From positions 172 to 64,171 of the forward strand of contig NZ_DASZBA010000191.1 of NCBI RefSeq assembly GCF_035944575.1: a DNA stretch of 64,000 bases, in the 5' to 3' direction. The notes below the pieces were generated by a model. The model did no database searches and was not told the DNA's origin. It saw only the letters and a program-made list of their open reading frames with translations. The position numbers and the translations under genes were made by a program. Each line of letters starts with the position of its first letter. Position 1 is the stretch's first letter. This document shows positions 3,251 through 16,070 of the stretch, in pieces. This stretch comes from Noviherbaspirillum sp. (GTDB taxonomy: Bacteria > Pseudomonadota > Gammaproteobacteria > Burkholderiales > Burkholderiaceae_D).

Positions 3251-4414
<1,164 letters not shown>

Positions 4415-4425
4415 ACGGATGTGCA

Positions 4426-5013
4426 ATGCCTGACCTATTGCGCCCTCTGCTGATCGAGATCGCGGCCTGCCGGCAATGCGCCGCCCATCTGCCGCACGGC
4501 CCGCGCCCGGTGGTGCAGGCCGGCCGCCATGCGCGCCTGCTCATCGTCGGCCAGGCGCCCGGCCGGCGGGTGCACGACACCGGCATCCCGTGGAATGATC
4601 CCTCCGGCAACCGCCTGCGCGACTGGCTCGCCATGCCGCCGGACATTTTCTACGACCCGAAGGTCGTTGCCATCATGCCCACCGCCTTCTGCTATCCCGG
4701 CAAGGGCAAAAGCGGCGATCTGCCGCCCCGCCCGGAATGCGCGCCGCTGTGGCATGACCGCGTGCTCGCCGCGATGCCGGACGTGCGGCTCACGCTGCTG
4801 GTCGGGCGCCATGCACAGGAACGCTTTTTACAGCACAATGCCAAGGCCACCCTGACCGAAACCGTGGCGGCCTGGCGCGACTACCTTCCTGCGTACCTGC
4901 CCCTGCCGCATCCCAGTCCGCGCAACCAGTCCTGGTGGAAAAGCAACCCCTGGTTTGAAACCGACGTGCTGCCTGCCCTGCGCGAGCGCGTCAAATCGAT
5001 CATTGCCTCATGA
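4426..5013 (+). CDS. Uracil-DNA glycosylase superfamily protein
   Basis: Start moved to the internal ATG (MPDLLRPLL), 11 nt after the ATPase stop. Motif A-like GQAPG and motif B-like HPSPRN are present. Confidence 0.7.
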   Translation: MPDLLRPLLIEIAACRQCAAHLPHGPRPVVQAGRHARLLIVGQAPGRRVHDTGIPWNDPSGNRLRDWLAMPPDIFYDPKVVAIMPTAFCYPGKGKSGDLPPRPECAPLWHDRVLAAMPDVRLTLLVGRHAQERFLQHNAKATLTETVAAWRDYLPAYLPLPHPSPRNQSWWKSNPWFETDVLPALRERVKSIIAS

Positions 5014-5516
5014 AAGAATCCATGCAACTTCCCGACAGCGCCCAACGCGTCGCCGACCTGCTCAACGCCATCGGCCACGACAAGCCGGTGGTCATGCTCC
5101 CCGAAACCGGCAAGACCTCCGCCGAAGCCGCCGCCGGCCTCGGCTGCGACATCGCCGCCATCGCCAAGTCCATCGTCTTCCGCCGCCTGTCGGATGATGC
5201 GGCGGTGATGGTCGTGGCCAGCGGCGCCAACCGCGTCGATGAACAAAAGGTCGCCGCCATCGTCGGCCCGCTCGGCCGCGCCGACGCGAAGTTCGTCAAG
5301 CAGCGCATCGGCTATGCGATCGGCGGCGTCTGCCCGATCGGCCACGTCGAGAAAACCGTCATGCTCATCGACGAAGACCTGATGCGCCTGGACAGCCTCT
5401 GGGCAGCCGCCGGCCACCCGCATGCGGTCTTCAATCTCACGCCGCAGCAGTTGCTGAACATGACCGGCGCGCCGCTCGCCGATGTCGCGCTGCGCGTGGA
5501 AACGAGGGTGGCGTGA
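5010..5516 (+). CDS. YbaK/EbsC-family aminoacyl-tRNA deacylase-like protein
   Basis: 168-aa ORF. KSIVFR...ASGANRVD...IGYAIGGVCPIGH resembles the YbaK fold. Its start overlaps the upstream stop. Confidence 0.7.
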   Translation: MKESMQLPDSAQRVADLLNAIGHDKPVVMLPETGKTSAEAAAGLGCDIAAIAKSIVFRRLSDDAAVMVVASGANRVDEQKVAAIVGPLGRADAKFVKQRIGYAIGGVCPIGHVEKTVMLIDEDLMRLDSLWAAAGHPHAVFNLTPQQLLNMTGAPLADVALRVETRVA

Positions 5517-6594: not shown

Positions 6595-7503
6595 ATGAAA
6601 CTACCCGCCACCATGCGCGTGTTCGAACGCGGCTGGCTCTCCTCCAACAACATACTTTTCATCGGCCGCGACGACACCGCGCTGGTCGACAGCGGCTACG
6701 CCACCCACGCGCCGCAAACCGTCGCGCTGGTGCGGCATGCGCTGCAAGGCAGGCCGCTCGACCGCCTGATCAATACCCACATGCATTCAGACCACTGCGG
6801 CGGCAACGCGGCGCTGCAACGCGAGTATGGCTGCCGCACCACGATTCCTGCCTCGGAAGCCGCAGCCGTGCGCACCTGGAACCAGGACGTGCTTACCTTC
6901 GAACTCACCGGCCAGCAATGCGAGCGCTTCACCTTCACCGACACGCTCGCACCAGGCGATGTGATCATGCTGGGCGGCATGGAATGGCAGGTACTCGGCG
7001 CTCCCGGTCATGACCCGCATTCGCTGGTGTTTTATTGTCCCGCCGAGCGCATCCTTATCTCCGCCGATGCGCTATGGGAAAACGGCTTCGGCGTCATCTT
7101 CCCCGAACTGGAAGGCGAATCCGGTTTCGCCGAAACCCGCGCCACGCTGGAACTGATCGCCTCGCTCGATGTGGACCTCGTGATCCCCGGCCATGGCGCG
7201 CCCTTCACCGATGTCGGCGCGGCGTTGAAACGGGCGTTTTCACGGCTCGACTATTTCGTCGCCGATCCAGCGCGTAATGCGCAGAATGCGGTGAAGGTAC
7301 TGCTCAAATTCCTGCTGCTGGAACGGCAATCCATCCCGCTGGCCGACGTGCCGCGCCTGATGGCCGACATGCATCTGTCGGCGGAAGCAAACCGGCGCTA
7401 TCTGCACCAGCCGCCCGAAGATCTCGCCAAGTGGGCGGTGTCGCAACTGGTGCGTGCCTGCGCGGCGAAAGTGGTCGACGATCAATTGGTGGATGCCGGC
7501 TGA
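6595..7503 (+). CDS. MBL-fold metallo-hydrolase
   Basis: Start set at the internal ATG (MKLPATMRVFERGW). The HMHSDHCGG metal motif is present. Confidence 0.8.
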   Translation: MKLPATMRVFERGWLSSNNILFIGRDDTALVDSGYATHAPQTVALVRHALQGRPLDRLINTHMHSDHCGGNAALQREYGCRTTIPASEAAAVRTWNQDVLTFELTGQQCERFTFTDTLAPGDVIMLGGMEWQVLGAPGHDPHSLVFYCPAERILISADALWENGFGVIFPELEGESGFAETRATLELIASLDVDLVIPGHGAPFTDVGAALKRAFSRLDYFVADPARNAQNAVKVLLKFLLLERQSIPLADVPRLMADMHLSAEANRRYLHQPPEDLAKWAVSQLVRACAAKVVDDQLVDAG

Positions 7504-8009: not shown

Positions 8010-8531
8010 TCAACTCGACGGAAACGCATCGATTTCCGCCGCGGCCGCACCGGCAAGCGCCGCAGGTTGAATGCCCATGGCTTCCAGTGCACGCAAGGCG
8101 ACGCCGTGACGGGCGGCGGTGGCAGCCAGCAGGACGTGCGCGCCCAGCAACGGCTTGCCTGCATCCTCTTTTTTCCGCGCGGCCAACTGTTGCATCAGTG
8201 CTTGCGCTGACGGTTGCGCATGGTAGACACCCTTACCCGCAGGGATGGGAGCGGCAGCGCTCCCTGCCGCATCGAGCGACACTTCGATGCCAATATTGCG
8301 CAACGCATCGTCGTATTGCCGGGCGATCGCCGCACGATAACCGTCCGGGTCGCTCTGCATGCGCTCGAACGCCTTGCGTGCCGTTCCGTCCGGCAGCGCC
8401 AGTGCGGCAAGAACAAAATGTTCCGCGCCCGGTTCCTTCCGGCCGTCCGCGTTCGCATATGATTCGGCGTTTTGGCAAAGTACCTTGATGGTATGCATGT
8501 CCTGAAAACGCTGTCTGATTCTGGTGAACAT
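8010..8531 (-). CDS. Clp N-terminal (Clp_R) repeat domain protein
   Basis: Start set at the internal ATG (MFTRIRQRF). It has two helical repeats with EHFVLAAL and AHVLLAAT, resembling the ClpA/B N-domain. Confidence 0.55.
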   Translation of the reverse strand: MFTRIRQRFQDMHTIKVLCQNAESYANADGRKEPGAEHFVLAALALPDGTARKAFERMQSDPDGYRAAIARQYDDALRNIGIEVSLDAAGSAAAPIPAGKGVYHAQPSAQALMQQLAARKKEDAGKPLLGAHVLLAATAARHGVALRALEAMGIQPAALAGAAAAEIDAFPSS

Positions 8532-8544
8532 GGAAGCTCCCGGT

Positions 8545-8763
8545 TTATGAATGCGGTTTTGAAAGCGTGCCGGCCAGGCGCTTATGTGCCGCCTGCTTCG
8601 ATACGCCAAGCGCTTCGGCAATCTGCGACCACGACCAGCCCTGATCCAGCGCAGCTTCCACGGCCTTGCGCTCCAGCTTGTCCGCCATCAGGCGCAATGC
8701 CACGACGGCGGCCAGTGCTTCGGCGGGATCGTCGGGAGAAGGAAGCGATTTGGGATTCATCAT
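8545..8763 (-). CDS. Small helix-turn-helix protein
   Basis: Start set at MMNPK. The C-terminal WSWSQIAEALGVSKQAAHKRL is a classic HTH. It lies 13 nt upstream of the Clp_N gene on the same strand. Confidence 0.55.
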   Translation of the reverse strand: MMNPKSLPSPDDPAEALAAVVALRLMADKLERKAVEAALDQGWSWSQIAEALGVSKQAAHKRLAGTLSKPHS

Positions 8764-8874
8764 GCGCCAATGATAGTTGACGCAGATTTTAATTGTCAAC
8801 TGATGTTGACGGCCATGCCCAACGATGGTGTGCCGGGATGAACGACATCGCCCCGATCCGCTCATCCCTGGCCG

Positions 8875-10515: not shown

Positions 10516-10875
10516 TCAATGATCCGGTATCGGCATACCCTGCGTACGCAGGAACGTCAGCTTGTCCCAATAGCCGCGTTGAAAAACGATCTGGTCATTC
10601 TGAATGTGAAAGAACCCGCATCCCCGCAGCCCGAGCGGATCGCGCCATTCAAGAATTGCCCATTCACCGTCTTCAAAAATGTTCTCGACGATGCATACCA
10701 TCTTCGCAGCGGCGAACCCGTCGGCGAACATCTTCCGAATCGCGTCTCTGCCTTCGACGGGTGATTCGGCTACCTGGTGGTTCACCGCATGTTCGTTGTA
10801 GAACGATGCGAGCGCATCGACGTCCGCTTTGTTGAAGGCATCCACCCATTGTTTGACGAGGTCTTTTGGTTTCAT
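10516..10875 (-). CDS. NTF2/SnoaL-like protein
   Basis: Start set at the internal ATG (MKPKDLVKQWVDAFNKADVDAL). The sequence upstream of it in the same frame is AT-rich islet DNA. Confidence 0.75.
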   Translation of the reverse strand: MKPKDLVKQWVDAFNKADVDALASFYNEHAVNHQVAESPVEGRDAIRKMFADGFAAAKMVCIVENIFEDGEWAILEWRDPLGLRGCGFFHIQNDQIVFQRGYWDKLTFLRTQGMPIPDH

Positions 10876-10989
10876 GGTGAATGTGTTTGTCGTGGTCCTG
10901 ACAGGCAATGTCTGACCGGACGCCGGCCTATAAGATGATATTGATCGAACTAAATTTAATCTACTCTGACGCTTATATTTTGACCTGTT

Positions 10990-11265
10990 GAGGTTACAGG
11001 TCAGATGTGCTGAGGTGCGAATGTGCTGCTGCAAGACTTGGCCCCGGTTACTGCTGTGCTCAGGACCAACCTGCCCAATTTGGTGCCCACGACGATATCC
11101 CCTCGCGGACGAACTCAGGCATTTTCTGTAACTCGTTGCGGCTTTCAGTTGCCTTGCCTAAATGCTTCTCAGCCATGATTCGTTCCCATCCGGCTCCACA
11201 AGTTTTTGTTCTTGAAGCTCATAGCTTTATCCTCTGCTTGTCACCCGTGAGTACCCGACCTTCAT
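10990..11265 (-). pseudogene. Serine recombinase (resolvase/invertase) N-terminal catalytic domain relic
   Basis: Hand translation of the minus strand across three frames gives MKVGYSRVTSRG*SYELQEQKL, then ERIMAEKHLGKATESRNELQKMPEFVREG, then GDIVVGTKLGRLVLS. Compare the Hin/Tn3 pattern IGYxRVSTxxQxxxLQ ... RIFxDKxSGK ... GDxLVVWKLDRLGRS. The relic has a stop at the conserved Q, at least 2 frameshifts, mutated catalytic residues, and is truncated after about 90 codons. Confidence 0.7.
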
Positions 11266-11564
11266 GTGCCCTTTGTTCTCAAAATTCTAAGATGATGTGA
11301 AACTTTAATATGAGACGATTTTTAAGACGATGCAAAAGGGAGTTTCATGATGTCTCGCGACTTGTAAGTTATAAGACATGCTCAGAAGTCCGATCATTAA
11401 AACCGACCACAGCGAAATAGCTAAATGCTGTAATTTCTGACTTAGAGCCAATACTTGCCCATTGGACATTCTGATTCGGATCTCGTAGACTTCATAAGCA
11501 AATCGCTACAAGTCTACCTAACGCGTAATTGCGTTGCTACCTATCCCTCTCTGAGTCACTCTAG

Positions 11565-12524
11565 ATGTCGACAACGAAGCTAACAGAACAACAACTTGCC
11601 ACTATTCGACCGCTTGAAGCTGCACTCCAGAAGGCGGTTCAACAGGTGGAACCGGAGAGGGCAATTGAGATTGTCACAAAAATACAAGCTGAGTTTCCCA
11701 ACGATCGGAGCCACCACCGTTTGCTTCGCGCAAAACTTTGGGCATTTGAAGCAAATTTAGAAGCGAATCGAATTATGTACGCCGAAACTGGCTTTATCGG
11801 GATTCGGAAGCTATCGGAACCTAATACTCGACTGTACTTGGAAGCAAGTTCCTTGCTTGCAGTATGTAAGTTGCGCCAGAAACGTGTTCCTGAAGCAAAA
11901 GACCTAATTACTGAAGTTATTTCGAAAATAAACAACATTGCCTCAGAGCGAACTCGAAGACAATTTCAAAAGCGGTTGATTGAGCGTATAGAAGAGGAAT
12001 GCATCCTGACAGAGTTAATCGGCACAGGAGATGCAACGTTAGATGTTAATGAAGTTGAGGCTAATGCTATATTTCTTTTGCAACGGAACACCGACGACGA
12101 AATTCTAAAACTAATTGGCGATAGCGTTCCAGCAGCTAGCATACAGTTGCTAAATGATGTTAGAACGCACTCGGTTAAGCAGCTTCCACCATCTGACCGC
12201 AAACTTCTTCCTCCACCCGAAAAGGCCGAAGAACCTAGGCAAATTGGGCGTACGACCTTTGCAATCCTGAAGCGTATCGCGTGGAAGACTTTCTGCAAGC
12301 CATCAAGTCCAATCTTCAAACTTTGGTCGAATCGTGTGCCAAAAGTCTTCAATGAAGGGTATTTTTCTGCAGCCGTTGTCACGACCTTGGGCGATTTTCG
12401 GATTGGAATCCCAATGATCGCGAGTGGCCTTGCTGCACTGGTTATGAAATACTCTGCGGAAGAGTTTTGCGAGTTGGCGAAACCGAAAGGACTGATGATC
12501 CCTAGGAACGAGCCTGAGACTTAG
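11565..12524 (+). CDS. Hypothetical protein (orphan, helical N-terminal region, hydrophobic C-terminal segment)
   Basis: 319-aa ORF in AT-rich DNA, so a long ORF is unlikely by chance. I recognise no family motif. Confidence 0.65.
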   Translation: MSTTKLTEQQLATIRPLEAALQKAVQQVEPERAIEIVTKIQAEFPNDRSHHRLLRAKLWAFEANLEANRIMYAETGFIGIRKLSEPNTRLYLEASSLLAVCKLRQKRVPEAKDLITEVISKINNIASERTRRQFQKRLIERIEEECILTELIGTGDATLDVNEVEANAIFLLQRNTDDEILKLIGDSVPAASIQLLNDVRTHSVKQLPPSDRKLLPPPEKAEEPRQIGRTTFAILKRIAWKTFCKPSSPIFKLWSNRVPKVFNEGYFSAAVVTTLGDFRIGIPMIASGLAALVMKYSAEEFCELAKPKGLMIPRNEPET

Positions 12525-12697
12525 AACATTTGACTCCATTCTTGCAAGGAAGGTCCTTTCCAATCGAGCGGGCAAAGGGTATGGCGGAAAGGGCGCTTCG
12601 TTTGAAGGAGAAACGTGCACGCACAACTTGACGAATTTCGTTGTAAGGTATGGTGCGAGAATCGGGTTATTGGCTGCCGATTCCCGTGCTTAAGCGA

Positions 12698-14110
12698 TCA
12701 ATCTGCTGCTGATTCAGGTTGCGGTGCTAAGTAGCCAGCCTTGTTGGCACTCAACAGTGCATCTAGCTCAGCATCCGAGAATGTCCCCTGTGCTCGAAGC
12801 TTTTGAATAAACGTTCTGTAACTTGTTGCACCAGGTATGTCTGCATTCGTCTCCACTGGAAGTCTAATAATGCGTTCAAAGTCTTCTTTAATTAAATATT
12901 CGAAAATTGGGAAGATCACCTTTCCCATTATTTCATTGACGCGATTGAAAGAATAAGCGCCGCCCAAAAAGTGAATGGCACGGTCCTTTGCAAGTATTCC
13001 TAATCCATGCTCTATTCCTAAAACAAGCTCGTCGAAAGTTAGTTGAGCAACACGTTTCGCGACTGCTTCAGCTAACGCTTCTAATCGGTTAAGGGACGCG
13101 AGACCCGGCACGACTTGTTCAGGCGGTGCACAATTGATAAAGCTTAGCACCTTACCTTTAGCATCCTCGTCGAGCAGGTTCCAACCAATTCGAACATGGG
13201 TAAGTATCGCTACGGCAAACATCAGACCAGCGTCCGGAACGTCCCTAATAGCTTTATTAAGTTGCTGCTTTAGCCGCCTTTCGACCTTATCAGGAAACAT
13301 TTCGAATACCCCCTTCAGGGCGGACATCACCGATAACTCTCCGTAAAAGTTATCGCCCTCCGTCACAAATCCAAAAACAATCATGTCAACGAAATTGCTG
13401 ACTAGAGCTTCGCTAGGGCGGGCAAGGGATGAGGCCCGAAATTGGACGATTACCTTATCGGTTTCATTAGGGAAGAACTGAGAGAGTATGAGAGCTCTCA
13501 ACTTTGCCAATGCTGCCTTTCCCTGAACTGGAGGCTCGGAAAGCACATGAATTACCGCGTTGCGCAGGTGTAGCCGCGCATGTTCTGCACTTGGACGGTA
13601 AGGTTCACCGATTCGTTGAAATGAGGGATGCGCGCACCGGTGTCTATCATCGCGTAATCGTAACAAGTCGGTAAACTGATGAGGATCGAGCATTTGTAGC
13701 TCGTTCCGACAAGTTTCGAGAACCTTTCTCTCGAACTCCAAGGCACCTTTCAGACCCTGATCATTGCCTGCCTCAATCTGAGCAATGTATCGTTCGTACT
13801 GAAGTTCAATGTCTTTGGCTTTACCCTCACCGGATGCGGCGAGCTCACGGATTTTGTCAATCAAGTCAAAAACAACGGCTATCCACGTACTTACAATCGC
13901 AGCACGATAAGCGCCTCCCCGATAACAAAGCACGGCTTCTGCTATATGTTCCTTTGAGCGTTCCGATCTACAGCGGAGGGCTAAGGTCTCAATGTCTGCA
14001 AGACTTTCTGCCACGTTTGTTTCTCCAAGTAAAGGATTGAGTGACAATAGAAGTGTAGGCGTAGACGAGTGCGCGCCTAATAGGTCACCCAATGTGTTGA
14101 CTAAACTCAT
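12698..14110 (-). CDS. Hypothetical protein with N-terminal HEPN-like region (two Rx4H motifs)
   Basis: 470-aa ORF in AT-rich DNA. Residues 56-86 read IAEAVLCYRGGAYRAAIVSTWIAVVFDLIDK. RHRCAH lies at 13628-13645 and RNAVIH at 13547-13564. Coding status is confident, function is not. Confidence 0.7.
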   Translation of the reverse strand: MSLVNTLGDLLGAHSSTPTLLLSLNPLLGETNVAESLADIETLALRCRSERSKEHIAEAVLCYRGGAYRAAIVSTWIAVVFDLIDKIRELAASGEGKAKDIELQYERYIAQIEAGNDQGLKGALEFERKVLETCRNELQMLDPHQFTDLLRLRDDRHRCAHPSFQRIGEPYRPSAEHARLHLRNAVIHVLSEPPVQGKAALAKLRALILSQFFPNETDKVIVQFRASSLARPSEALVSNFVDMIVFGFVTEGDNFYGELSVMSALKGVFEMFPDKVERRLKQQLNKAIRDVPDAGLMFAVAILTHVRIGWNLLDEDAKGKVLSFINCAPPEQVVPGLASLNRLEALAEAVAKRVAQLTFDELVLGIEHGLGILAKDRAIHFLGGAYSFNRVNEIMGKVIFPIFEYLIKEDFERIIRLPVETNADIPGATSYRTFIQKLRAQGTFSDAELDALLSANKAGYLAPQPESAAD

Positions 14111-14457
14111 TACTTTACTTGGATTCTTGTTCGTGAAGCAAGGCTAGCCGCCCTTAGCTGCATTGAGGAGGAAAAATCTCCGAACAAGTTTTGAGATTGA
14201 TGACTGCTTAGCTGAGACATGCGACGTTTGCTGACTCGACGCCATTAGACTATGTAAATGCCTAAGATATTCCTCGAGTAAGCGATGGTTTTGTCTATGC
14301 GAGGTAAAGATGAGTGATCAAGAACGTGTATGTCGAAAGACCATTGTGACGGACGCTTTGGAGCGCATGGTGTGTTGCACCATCACTTCCACTTATAACA
14401 TCAATGGTGGCCTAACTCCTTGAGTTCTAAGGGGCGGTTCAATCCCCGCCATATCCC

Positions 14458-16032
14458 TCAAGCCACATTCTTCAACCGCTTCACCCCCGCCTGCGGCAAG
14501 TCCACCATCATCGGCTCCCCCGGCACCGTACATCCCGTCGCGCAGCATTTCCCCGGCTGCTTGTTCGCCGTGATCGGCCGTCGCGGATCGTCTACCAGCC
14601 CGCGGTCCATCAACCGCTCCACCAGTTCCACCTTGTTCCCGATCGGGTAGTTGCGGTAGATCTCCTGCTTCATCGCCGCCGGTGAGCCGCCGCCGTGCAG
14701 GCTGATGACCGAGTACCAGCCGCCCTGATAGGACGCGGTGAGGTCTTCGATGAAACGGGCCGTTTGTATGCGCTGCTCGTACGGCACATTCGGATTGGCG
14801 CGCAGGACGTCGGCGAGGTTGGCCGCCGTTTCAGGATTGTGGTCTTCGTCGGGGCCGGGGAGGGTAACAATCAGGCCGCCCGATACATAGTGGGCGATGC
14901 GATGCATGTCGTAGATCTGCGTGGCCAGCAGCAGCTTGCCGATGTTGGAGAACACCGCGTCCGGCACGAAGGTGTTCGAGGCCTCGTCAACCTTTGCATA
15001 CACCGATGCGGCCACGCCGCAGGCATAGAAGCCTTCGGTGATCTTGATGAGTTCCACCATCTGTTCGCGCAAGTGAGTTTCCTTGCCAGGATCGAAGCCG
15101 TTCGCTTCGCACATCAATGCGCCGGCGCCGATGAGCAGGTCGCCGAAGCCGGCGCGTGCGCCGATGCAGCTGTGACGGTGGTGGGTCGCGTAGTTGTAGG
15201 TCATGTAGGACGAGTGTTCCCATTCGCCGGCGTAAAACACCCGTTCCCACGGCACGAAGACGCGGTCGAAGACCAGCACGCCGGTGGATTGGCCGAACTT
15301 GTTGGAGAACAGCGCCGATTTTTCTCCCGGGCGTCCGGCGGGGCGGGCGATGATGGTCAGCCCGGGGACATCGCAGGGCACCGCGCAGCAGACCGCGAAG
15401 TCGGCATCCGCCTCGCTCATGTTGCGGCAGGGCATGACGAGAAATTCATGCATGTAGGGCGCACCAGTGACGATGGCCTTGGTGCCGGACAGGACGATGC
15501 CTTTCGCATTGCGCTCGACGATGTGCACATACGAATCCGGATTGGCCTGCTCGTGCGGACGGCGGCTGCGGTCGCCTTTCGCATCGGTCATCGCAATGCC
15601 GACCGAGAGGTCGCGGTCCTGGAAGTCGTGCAGGTAGTTGAGGAAATGCTCGCCGTAGCGAGTGCCCTTGTCGGCGTCGATGCGATGCGTGGCCTGGTAG
15701 ATCGCGTTGAAGGCATCGTGCGCAAGATAGCGCTGCGCGCAGCCGGTTTCCTGGCACAGCAGGCGAACCGCTTCCAGCTTGTTGAGCAGGTCACCGGTAC
15801 TGGTGTTGATGTGCAGCATGCGGTTGACCTGCTTGCCGGAGGTGTGCTGTGTCGCCAGCATCAGCGGCGCGAAGTCTTCCTTTAATGCGTAGTCGTAGGT
15901 GACGCCGAGCGCATTGATGCCCGGTGCGAATGCCGGTTCGTCCGCCACCGATTCGATAAGGCGGCCATCCAGATAGACTTTCGGCTTGTATTGCCGCAGC
16001 GACTCGCGGTATTCGGCGGATGACATCAGCAT
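14458..16032 (-). CDS. HpaB/AbfD-family protein (4-hydroxyphenylacetate 3-hydroxylase / 4-hydroxybutyryl-CoA dehydratase family)
   Basis: Start set at the internal ATG, preceded by AAGGAG at 16039-16044. Family-typical stretches include GIAMTDAKGDRS, GTKAIVTGAPY and ATHHRHSCIGARAG. Confidence 0.75.
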   Translation of the reverse strand: MLMSSAEYRESLRQYKPKVYLDGRLIESVADEPAFAPGINALGVTYDYALKEDFAPLMLATQHTSGKQVNRMLHINTSTGDLLNKLEAVRLLCQETGCAQRYLAHDAFNAIYQATHRIDADKGTRYGEHFLNYLHDFQDRDLSVGIAMTDAKGDRSRRPHEQANPDSYVHIVERNAKGIVLSGTKAIVTGAPYMHEFLVMPCRNMSEADADFAVCCAVPCDVPGLTIIARPAGRPGEKSALFSNKFGQSTGVLVFDRVFVPWERVFYAGEWEHSSYMTYNYATHHRHSCIGARAGFGDLLIGAGALMCEANGFDPGKETHLREQMVELIKITEGFYACGVAASVYAKVDEASNTFVPDAVFSNIGKLLLATQIYDMHRIAHYVSGGLIVTLPGPDEDHNPETAANLADVLRANPNVPYEQRIQTARFIEDLTASYQGGWYSVISLHGGGSPAAMKQEIYRNYPIGNKVELVERLMDRGLVDDPRRPITANKQPGKCCATGCTVPGEPMMVDLPQAGVKRLKNVA

Positions 16033-16070
16033 GGCGATCTCCTTGAATTGAAAACGGTCTATCATGAATG

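Follow-up and report, generated by a model that had tools for sequence, protein, structure and literature searches.

A horizontally acquired islet of Noviherbaspirillum sp. with a putative DARNA-type HEPN gene, a recombinase relic and a second candidate cargo gene

Introduction

The protein PD-T7-3 was found by functional selection in Escherichia coli (Vassallo et al. 2022; PMC9519451) and was renamed DARNA (bioRxiv 10.64898/2026.02.22.705581). It is a single-gene abortive-infection protein that combines an N-terminal HEPN domain (R117x4H122) with a C-terminal Pds5-like helical domain; its dodecamer cleaves the anticodon loops of many tRNAs, and its activator is single-stranded DNA (ssDNA), which is presented by the single-stranded DNA-binding proteins (SSBs) of phages and bound by the C-terminal domains (F368 and W406 are among the mutated residues) (bioRxiv 10.64898/2026.02.22.705581). 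HEPN domains are common in toxin-antitoxin systems (bioRxiv 10.64898/2026.02.22.705581), and DARNA is autoinhibited, not antitoxin-controlled (PMC9519451; bioRxiv 10.64898/2026.02.22.705581). Here we describe a relative of this protein in a stretch of 64,000 nucleotides from Noviherbaspirillum sp. (assembly GCF_035944575.1, contig NZ_DASZBA010000191.1, positions 172 to 64,171), hereafter the window, whose positions are used throughout. The relative lies in a low-G+C islet between a SnoaL-like and an HpaB-like gene, together with the remains of a serine recombinase gene and a second open reading frame (ORF). We call the two ORFs ORF438 and ORF319 after their lengths in amino acids. The islet is probably a piece of mobile DNA, now decayed, that entered between the two flanking genes and carries two independent cargo modules, the DARNA-type HEPN gene ORF438 and ORF319.

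Results

The HEPN domain of ORF438 is homologous to that of DARNA

The mechanical ORF at 12698-14110 (minus strand) encodes 470 amino acids; we moved its start to the GTG at 14014, which leaves 438 amino acids, because both the N-termini of the homologues (consensus MxESLADIE) and an upstream GGAGAA ribosome-binding site point to that codon. ORF438 has more than 450 homologues, mostly proteobacterial, and those listed are mostly 430-450 amino acids long. R124 and H129 of its Rx4H motif are invariant in 37 homologues; the stretch RHRCAHP aligns with RHLSAHP of PDB entry 9wxf, and the motif also aligns with R117/H122 of DARNA. The PADLOC model PD-T7-3 matches residues 39-203 of the 470-amino-acid reading (E 6e-22), and a sequence search of PDB returned 'Dandelion' (9wxf, 460 amino acids, 12 chains; E 4e-12), of which 9wx2 is the HEPN domain. 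A tblastn search of phage records found ORF1 of the P2-EC30 Z-region (AJ512676), and BLASTP aligns this protein to ORF438 with 25% identity over 217 amino acids (E 7e-16). At the level of profiles, hhalign of the 37 homologues against 13 partial PD-T7-3 proteins gave a collinear alignment over 361 columns (probability 99%, E 2e-18), in which the C-terminal part of the PD-T7-3 side is thin, with 3 sequences only.

The P2-EC30 protein ties these names together. In the part that aligns, it is identical to 9wxf; with P0242, a protein that carries F6, N33, R98, R117 and H122, the residue numbers of DARNA, it shares 83% identity. We take Dandelion (9wxf/9wx2), P2-EC30 ORF1 and DARNA to be the same protein or family, as judged from their sequences. 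Since ORF1 is identical to the aligned part of 9wxf and 83% identical to P0242, the characterised DARNA system sits in the classic Z/fun hotspot of P2. The GenBank record of ORF1 (L141, AJ512676.1), which dates from about 2003 and covers a variable region of a P2 prophage, calls it a hypothetical protein.

The C-terminal part of ORF438 is entirely helical in an AlphaFold2 (AF2) model, whose predicted local distance difference test score (pLDDT) is 88 overall and above 90 over most of this part. Foldseek returned weak matches only, to HEAT/ARM solenoids (PP2A A subunit, AP-2, symplekin), none of them at E <= 0.001. The modelled solenoid falls in the fold class of Pds5, a resemblance that is not evidence of homology. 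Residues F368 and W406 of the ssDNA-binding domain of DARNA cannot be placed reliably on the ORF438 alignment. Close homologues of ORF438 (47-65% identity) carry precomputed matches to PF27235 'AF_1680', several of which are flagged weak or faint; neither 'Dandelion' in combination with HEPN nor 'AF_1680' turned up a relevant paper in a literature search. Just upstream of the GTG start, and straddling the spurious ATG of the longer frame, is a 19-nt inverted repeat (14024-14042 / 14105-14123), the arms of which are 89% complementary and 62 nt apart. The repeat may act as an operator or form a structure in the 5' leader; it is not conserved in the locus of the L004 homologue.

An earlier note, made from the DNA letters and their ORFs alone, had described a 470-amino-acid ORF with HEPN-type motifs, had placed neither ORF of the islet in a nameable family and had suggested an uncharacterised defence or abortive-infection locus. 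The motif is real, and the 470-amino-acid frame exists as a mechanical ORF, but the gene is the shorter one. ORF438 is indeed a HEPN protein of the abortive-infection type, but its HEPN domain is homologous to that of a characterised protein, and the lack of a family holds for ORF319 but not for the larger ORF, with its PD-T7-3 match and its PF27235 homologues. The PADLOC search that the note proposed returned PD-T7-3 for the larger ORF and nothing for ORF319, and the proposed structural comparison, run with AF2 models of both ORFs, gave no Foldseek match at E <= 0.001.

Relatives of ORF438 were found in mobile or variable surroundings, with no recurring partner gene in any context examined. 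They occur in a mobile element with resolvase and integrase (L004-7), in Collimonas (L008), where the neighbours are a Ppl-like ATPase, an IS3 element, a resolvase and VgrG, at one end of a prophage with genes for lysis and the tail tip alongside (L143), adjacent to a GAPS4-type PDDEXK cluster (L145) and in a HicB/HNH/IS66 island of Burkholderia latens (L147). One further relative lies near an integrase, four IMG/VR contigs carry relatives, and others are plasmid-borne, for instance in B. cepacia ATCC 25416, where H-NS and a Tn3 transposase are close by. Their G+C is below that of the flanks in most flanked loci: in the four IMG/VR contigs it is 0.33-0.42 against 0.52-0.62, a gap of 0.12-0.23, whereas L008 shows none.

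A dead serine recombinase belongs to the ORF319 module

Translation of the recombinase relic in three frames yields the segments MKVGYSRV.., EKHLGKATESRNELQKMPEFVREG and GDIVVGTKLGRLV, and the stitched peptide matches the Pfam Resolvase domain (PF00239) with E 4e-8 and 33.8 bits (cutoff 23.3). The closest homologue of ORF319 (P0122, 92% amino acid identity) lies on a Logan contig (L136; SRR5177929, 1-6835) and has an intact, divergent resolvase gene of 191 codons 312 bp upstream. Window positions 11063-12524 and L136 positions 4037-5513 form one collinear block of 1484 nt at 79% nucleotide identity, which covers the resolvase over its first ~68 codons, then the intergenic region and the whole of ORF319, and which ends at the ORF319 stop codon (12524). 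Compared with the L136 resolvase DNA, codon 13 of the relic has become a stop (CAA>TAA) and two 1-nt deletions have occurred; its catalytic-serine motif RVST has become RVTS, and homology is gone after about codon 70. Because the two genes are paired divergently on L136 as well, there with the resolvase intact, we assign the relic to the ORF319 module: it is the partner of ORF319 and not a general relic of the island. The resolvase of the closest ORF438 homologue (L004) was tried as an alternative source and gave no match to the relic.

On L136, genes for Bro-N, HTH_24 and HNH/AP2 proteins lie on one side of the pair and a convergent, unannotated ORF of 202 amino acids lies on the other, in the slot that ORF438 occupies in the window; the arrangement resembles that of a prophage-like element in which the gene at one cargo position can be exchanged. 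The only sigma-70-like site of the islet, a match to the consensus only, is at 11463-11491 (+), in the intergenic region between relic and ORF319. A promoter of ORF319 that the resolvase could invert was also considered, and neither the window nor L136 has convincing inverted repeats.

ORF319 belongs to a compact family. Its 339 homologues at 50-92% identity are all labelled hypothetical and come from Burkholderia, Paraburkholderia, Nitrotoga, Gallionella, Nitrosomonadales and Gammaproteobacteria, and an exhaustive profile search of 1.84 billion representatives returned only 222 clusters (50% identity). The full-length clusters are nearly all ~310-330 amino acids long (two reach up to 404) and have no added domains. 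Conservation extends over the full length (61% mean column identity), with invariant motifs that include HHRLLRAKLW, TRxxFQ, EEEC, PDRxxLP and YxAEEFC. The N-terminal part resembles tetratricopeptide repeats (TPR): Pfam TPR_19 is matched below threshold (21.4 bits, cutoff 25), the AF2 model has TPR-like helical hairpins at residues 10-140 (pLDDT 80-92; <60 beyond), and Foldseek gave weak TPR matches only, the best to the kinesin light chain TPR (E 0.017; template modelling score ~0.36-0.40). PADLOC, NCBIfam and PHROGs had no match, a PDB sequence profile search gave chance hits only, and no clear transmembrane segment was found (19-residue Kyte-Doolittle maximum 1.45).

In most loci with flanks, relatives of ORF319 have a G+C below that of their surroundings (e.g. 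0.43 vs 0.60), with no difference in a few low-GC contigs; nucleotide similarity between the loci is restricted to the coding sequence, and no neighbour family recurs except IS3 transposases, in 4 loci. A PADLOC scan of 134 neighbour ORFs in 22 non-redundant loci found defence neighbours in at least 6 of these ~22 loci. A type I restriction enzyme and PDC-S46 flank the relative on L092; a large LmuB-like SMC-type ATPase adjoins it on the same strand on L108 (1896-4421) and L119 (8076-10688); NERD+UvrD lies nearby on L116/L117, and PDC-M34 (HEPN_Swt1 with DUF5343) on L003. The matches also include a type II restriction-modification pair and PDC-S31. The LmuB-like ATPase is upstream of the ORF319 relative in one of its two loci and downstream in the other. 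Other homologues stand beside the type VI secretion genes Hcp or PAAR-Tae4; on L137-L140 and L003 (5298-5675) they are divergent to orphan genes of this kind, either Hcp with two small ORFs or PAAR with Tae4. These neighbours may reflect shared variable islands only, or a link to inter-bacterial conflict. Taken together, the contexts suggest that ORF319 behaves as variable-island cargo with a modest association with defence, by which its function is not established.

ORF319 and ORF438 occur independently

Across the fetched loci, which included up to 7 kb of flank, tblastn found relatives of ORF438 in 0 of 45 ORF319 loci and relatives of ORF319 in 0 of 9 ORF438 loci. Because the families do not co-occur, the genes are convergent and the recombinase-ORF319 block ends before ORF438, the two are independent single-gene modules of a mosaic islet and not a two-gene system. 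The spacer between their stop codons (12525-12697) has no match to a terminator-like element or an RNA family.

The islet is a foreign insertion in a variable chromosomal spot

In 500-nt and 1-kb windows, G+C falls to 0.44-0.49 at about 10.5-14.2 kb, whereas the rest of the 64-kb window has a mean of 0.621 (standard deviation 0.026) and a minimum of 0.532 (1-kb); the interval 10879-14452 is the sole region in the 64 kb with a 1-kb G+C below 0.53. G+C at third codon positions (GC3) is 0.43 in ORF319 and 0.44 in ORF438, against 0.64-0.82 in the flanking genes (HpaB-like 0.82), and, measured by tetranucleotides, the islet lies ~3.5 times as far from the remaining window as the median segment of its length. 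A contig from a Noviherbaspirillum metagenome-assembled genome (L010), whose HpaB-like gene is 92% identical to that of the window in nucleotides and 98% in amino acids, lacks the islet: homology ends at window position 14453, just beyond the HpaB-like stop codon, and restarts at 10878, the start of the SnoaL-like gene. Between these points lie, in L010, two small ORFs for membrane proteins, whose G+C is normal, and an HTH/Clp_N-like gene pair. Since homology breaks at 14453/10878 with other genes between, the islet is an insertion in a locally variable spot of the chromosome. A second metagenome contig (L009) holds an identical 12 kb, islet included, and the HpaB-like protein of N. humi (L011) is 88% identical to that of the window in amino acids. 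By its HpaB-like protein, with these matches in L010 and L011, the window belongs to Noviherbaspirillum (Oxalobacteraceae). Neither direct nor inverted repeats were detected flanking the ends of the islet, ARAGORN found no tRNA in the window, and no Rfam family was found in the islet at E <= 1.

These results bear on most of what the earlier note had said of the islet as a whole. The abrupt change in composition that it reported is borne out by G+C, GC3 and tetranucleotides alike, its edges (10876-14457) prove right to a few bases against the L010 breakpoints, and the synteny comparison that it suggested turned up a relative without the islet between the SnoaL-like and HpaB-like genes; composition and this absence together sustain its claim of horizontal acquisition. 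The decayed serine recombinase is real, with its PF00239 match, its stop, its frameshifts and its truncation, and the 319-amino-acid ORF and the 173-bp convergent gap were confirmed. The note had further seen in these parts the signature of phage-defence cargo and had treated them as a single locus. The foreign islet, the dead recombinase and the HEPN gene agree with that signature, but L136 makes the recombinase specific to ORF319, and the co-occurrence counts do not bear out a joint system.

Other features of the region

The features are collected in Table 1. The HTH/Clp_N pair, which the window has beyond the SnoaL-like gene, takes in L010 the exact place of the islet, with the HpaB-like gene on one side and the SnoaL-like gene on the other, and so seems to move as a unit inside the variable region. 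At the right junction, on its islet side, is a GC-rich hairpin (~14435-14452; GGCGG-TTCAATCC-CCGCC), which follows the HpaB-like stop codon by a few bases and may now be the HpaB terminator or a remnant of an attachment site; its likeness to a T-arm is superficial, and a tRNA was rejected with ARAGORN and Rfam both negative. Near the other end, a perfect 7-bp inverted repeat, GACCTGT-TGAGGTT-ACAGGTC (10980-11000), falls inside the 184 bp that separate the SnoaL-like start from the onset of homology to the L136 resolvase, and could be a deletion junction or an element of the SnoaL promoter. Outside the islet, a metallo-beta-lactamase-fold gene at ~6595-7503 (L009 16563-17471) has a precomputed weak match to Anti-Pycsar Apyc1 in the gene table of L009.

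Table 1. Features of the islet and its immediate surroundings in the window
Feature	Position	Strand	Evidence
HTH/Clp_N overlapping small gene pair	8010-8865	-	106-amino-acid HTH_23, E 8.5e-6; 203-amino-acid Clp_N-domain protein, E 2e-9
SnoaL-like gene	10516-10875	-	Pfam SnoaL_2, E 1.5e-14
Low-GC islet, horizontally acquired, 3.57 kb	10879..14452	.	Composition outlier; missing from L010
Serine recombinase (resolvase/invertase) pseudogene, N-terminal ~68 codons	11063..11265	-	Three-frame translation, PF00239, L136 alignment
Divergent intergenic region, relic to ORF319	11266..11564	.	Collinear with L136
ORF319, TPR-like N-terminal domain (~residues 8-150), conserved C-terminal half without recognised fold	11565..12524	+	Homologues, AF2
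Convergent spacer, 173 bp, between the stop codons of ORF319 and ORF438	12525..12697	.	ORF coordinates
ORF438, DARNA/PD-T7-3-like HEPN protein	12698..14014	-	PADLOC, PDB, BLASTP and hhalign matches
ORF438, putative HEAT/ARM-like helical C-terminal domain	12698-13519	-	
ORF438, HEPN domain, ~residues 1-165	13520-14014	-	
HEPN catalytic motif R124-H-R-C-A-H129 (Rx4H)	13628..13645	-	Translation and homologue alignment
AT-rich region upstream of ORF438	14015..14452	.	19-nt inverted repeat; GC-rich hairpin at the HpaB-like junction
HpaB-like gene	14458-16065	-	HpaB_N, E 1e-87

Discussion

The reading of the islet as decayed mobile DNA with two cargo modules builds on its foreign origin, on the homology of the HEPN domain with its intact motif, on the independence of the two genes and on the linkage of the recombinase to ORF319. 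By analogy with DARNA, ORF438 would be a stand-alone DARNA-type HEPN ribonuclease that dimerises via its HEPN domain and is probably held inactive, by autoinhibition, in uninfected cells. A cue of phage infection, either nucleic acid or protein, would be sensed by the helical C-terminal domain and activate the protein; the Rx4H site across the HEPN dimer would then cleave host RNA, most likely in the anticodon loops of tRNAs, so that translation would halt and the infection abort. For the ribonuclease activity, its substrate, its trigger and the anti-phage phenotype, we infer from the characterised relative. ORF319 presumably arrived with a divergent small serine recombinase, later inactivated and truncated. 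It would be a TPR-like protein whose gene travels alone between genomes, and our best guess is that it, too, serves defence or conflict as a single gene, a role at which its association with defence neighbours hints.

Several observations weigh against this interpretation. Homology to DARNA is demonstrable only over the N-terminal ~200 residues of ORF438: the PADLOC match spans only positions 5-162 of the 432 of the PD-T7-3 model, and the C-terminal 270 residues alone, compared with C-terminal PD-T7-3 profiles, gave E 0.41 and 0.21. As this homology is undetected, the sensor of ORF438, and hence its trigger, may differ from that of DARNA. Foldseek searches of PDB and BFVD with the ORF438 model returned no significant structural neighbour, and 9wxf was not among the matches. 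Within the HEPN domain itself, the tRNA-binding residue R98 of DARNA aligns with a Glu of ORF438 in the alignment to 9wxf. As for ORF319, tblastn against 72,556 plasmids and 50,697 phage records found no member of its family, and none was found in IMG/VR; several of its loci lie among housekeeping genes (aspS and nadA in L001); the enrichment of defence neighbours is modest, and some of the PADLOC matches are to generic ATPase/helicase domains.

Other explanations of the locus were weighed against the same evidence. The low G+C might be a local mutational or selective peculiarity of native genes, as the adjoining SnoaL-like gene is also somewhat low (0.54); yet the 92%-identical relative lacks the islet with exact breakpoints, a recombinase relic lies inside it, and the homologues of both genes are scattered over unrelated taxa with a G+C mostly below their flanks. 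The synteny comparison rules a native origin out, and we regard it as practically inconceivable. The convergent ORFs might instead form one two-component system, sensor with effector or toxin with antitoxin, in which ORF319 regulates or neutralises the HEPN nuclease. The two are neighbours, share a low G+C and have the islet to themselves, and HEPN toxins often have partner antitoxins; the DARNA paper (bioRxiv 10.64898/2026.02.22.705581) lists the modes by which they are regulated. However, the two genes are convergent and not co-transcribed, the homology to L136 stops exactly at the stop codon of ORF319, and each family has its own varied contexts. With the co-occurrence test this reading is largely refuted, and it is very improbable.

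ORF438 might also be a selfish addiction or stabilisation toxin, or a nuclease of inter-bacterial conflict, that serves a mobile element and not immunity. Its relatives in mobile elements, at prophage ends and on plasmids would suit such a role, as would the frequency of HEPN domains in toxin-antitoxin systems, whereas the lack of a conserved adjacent antitoxin-like gene, the presence of defence genes among some neighbours (the GAPS4-type PDDEXK cluster, the Ppl-like ATPase) and the closest characterised relative, a validated abortive-infection defence protein that is autoinhibited, speak for immunity; we consider the selfish role unlikely. There is a somewhat better, though still limited, chance that the functionally important gene of the islet is ORF319, as a new defence gene that works alone and joins a TPR-like sensor to a novel effector at the C-terminus, and that the DARNA-like gene is a second, unrelated member of a mini defence island. 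Compactness, 61% mean column identity, uniform length and freedom from fusions favour it, as do a G+C mostly below the flanks, the lack of a conserved neighbour, similarity confined to coding sequence, and defence neighbours in at least 6 of ~22 loci (L092, L108, L119, L116/L117, L003 and, here, the DARNA-like gene). The family, however, has no match in PADLOC, PHROGs, NCBIfam or PDB, is absent from the plasmid and phage collections, lies in other loci among housekeeping or type VI secretion genes (Hcp, PAAR) and shows a modest enrichment, with some PADLOC matches to generic domains; the C-terminal half is poorly modelled, and there is no clear transmembrane segment. A wider proposal, which we put forward only tentatively, is that ORF319 represents a new stand-alone anti-phage or anti-mobile-element family (TPR-like sensor, conserved C-terminal effector) that moves as a single low-GC gene among Beta- and Gammaproteobacteria, sometimes with a serine recombinase, and that, separately, the solenoid of ORF438/PF27235 senses a trigger other than SSB-presented ssDNA.

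DARNA itself was characterised only recently, from a protein of an E. coli P2 prophage. Its HEPN module is also present in a large environmental clade of more than 450 homologues, whose C-terminal domain is too diverged to recognise. With this clade, nature offers a way to ask if the sensing of ssDNA is a general property or if one sensor domain has been exchanged for another. ORF319, in turn, brings to notice a compact, strongly conserved and wholly unannotated family that behaves like mobile defence cargo and is a circumstantial candidate for a defence gene.

Comparison with known systems places each part of the islet. The relic matches the N-terminal Resolvase domain of the small serine recombinases (PF00239 with HTH_7) of transposons, plasmids and prophage-like elements, and differs from them in being dead, with a stop, two frameshifts, an altered Ser motif and everything past ~codon 70 deleted. 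ORF319 is reminiscent of TPR-containing single-gene defence or conflict proteins in its TPR-like N-terminus, its stand-alone occurrence, its low G+C and its occasional adjacency to restriction-modification, Lamassu-like and PDC genes; unlike them, it has neither homology to a catalogued defence protein nor a recognisable effector domain. With the HEPN ribonucleases Csm6/Csx1, HepT (of HepT-MntA), PrrC/RloC, ApeA and AbiF/AbiD, ORF438 shares the HEPN fold and an Rx4-6H site presumably formed across a dimer, and by analogy it would share their general logic of RNA cleavage triggered by infection. However, it has no CARF/SAVED domain, MNT partner or ATPase domain, and none of the PADLOC or Pfam models of these families matches it; only PD-T7-3 does.

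The likeness to DARNA is much closer. The N-terminal HEPN domains are homologous, the Rx4H motifs are of the same kind (RHRCAH in ORF438, RHLSAH in DARNA), the lengths are similar (438 against ~456 amino acids), and both proteins are all-helical with a HEAT/Pds5-like solenoid at the C-terminus, that of ORF438 being predicted by the AF2 model; both are partnerless single genes in variable slots of prophages or mobile elements. In contrast, the ~290-amino-acid ssDNA-sensing C-terminal domain of DARNA has no detectable sequence or profile similarity in ORF438 (E 0.2-0.4), and the homologues of ORF438 are filed in a separate, recent Pfam family (PF27235 'AF_1680') that is mainly beta- and gammaproteobacterial and environmental, whereas DARNA is from an enterobacterial P2 prophage. 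The dodecamer, the activation by ssDNA and SSBs and the cleavage of tRNAs were reported for the E. coli protein only, ORF438 being known from its sequence. We therefore file ORF438 as a putative DARNA-type HEPN protein with a possibly different sensor domain. The islet as a whole is an ordinary small, decayed insertion of the defence type, in which ORF438 is a divergent variant of a characterised system.

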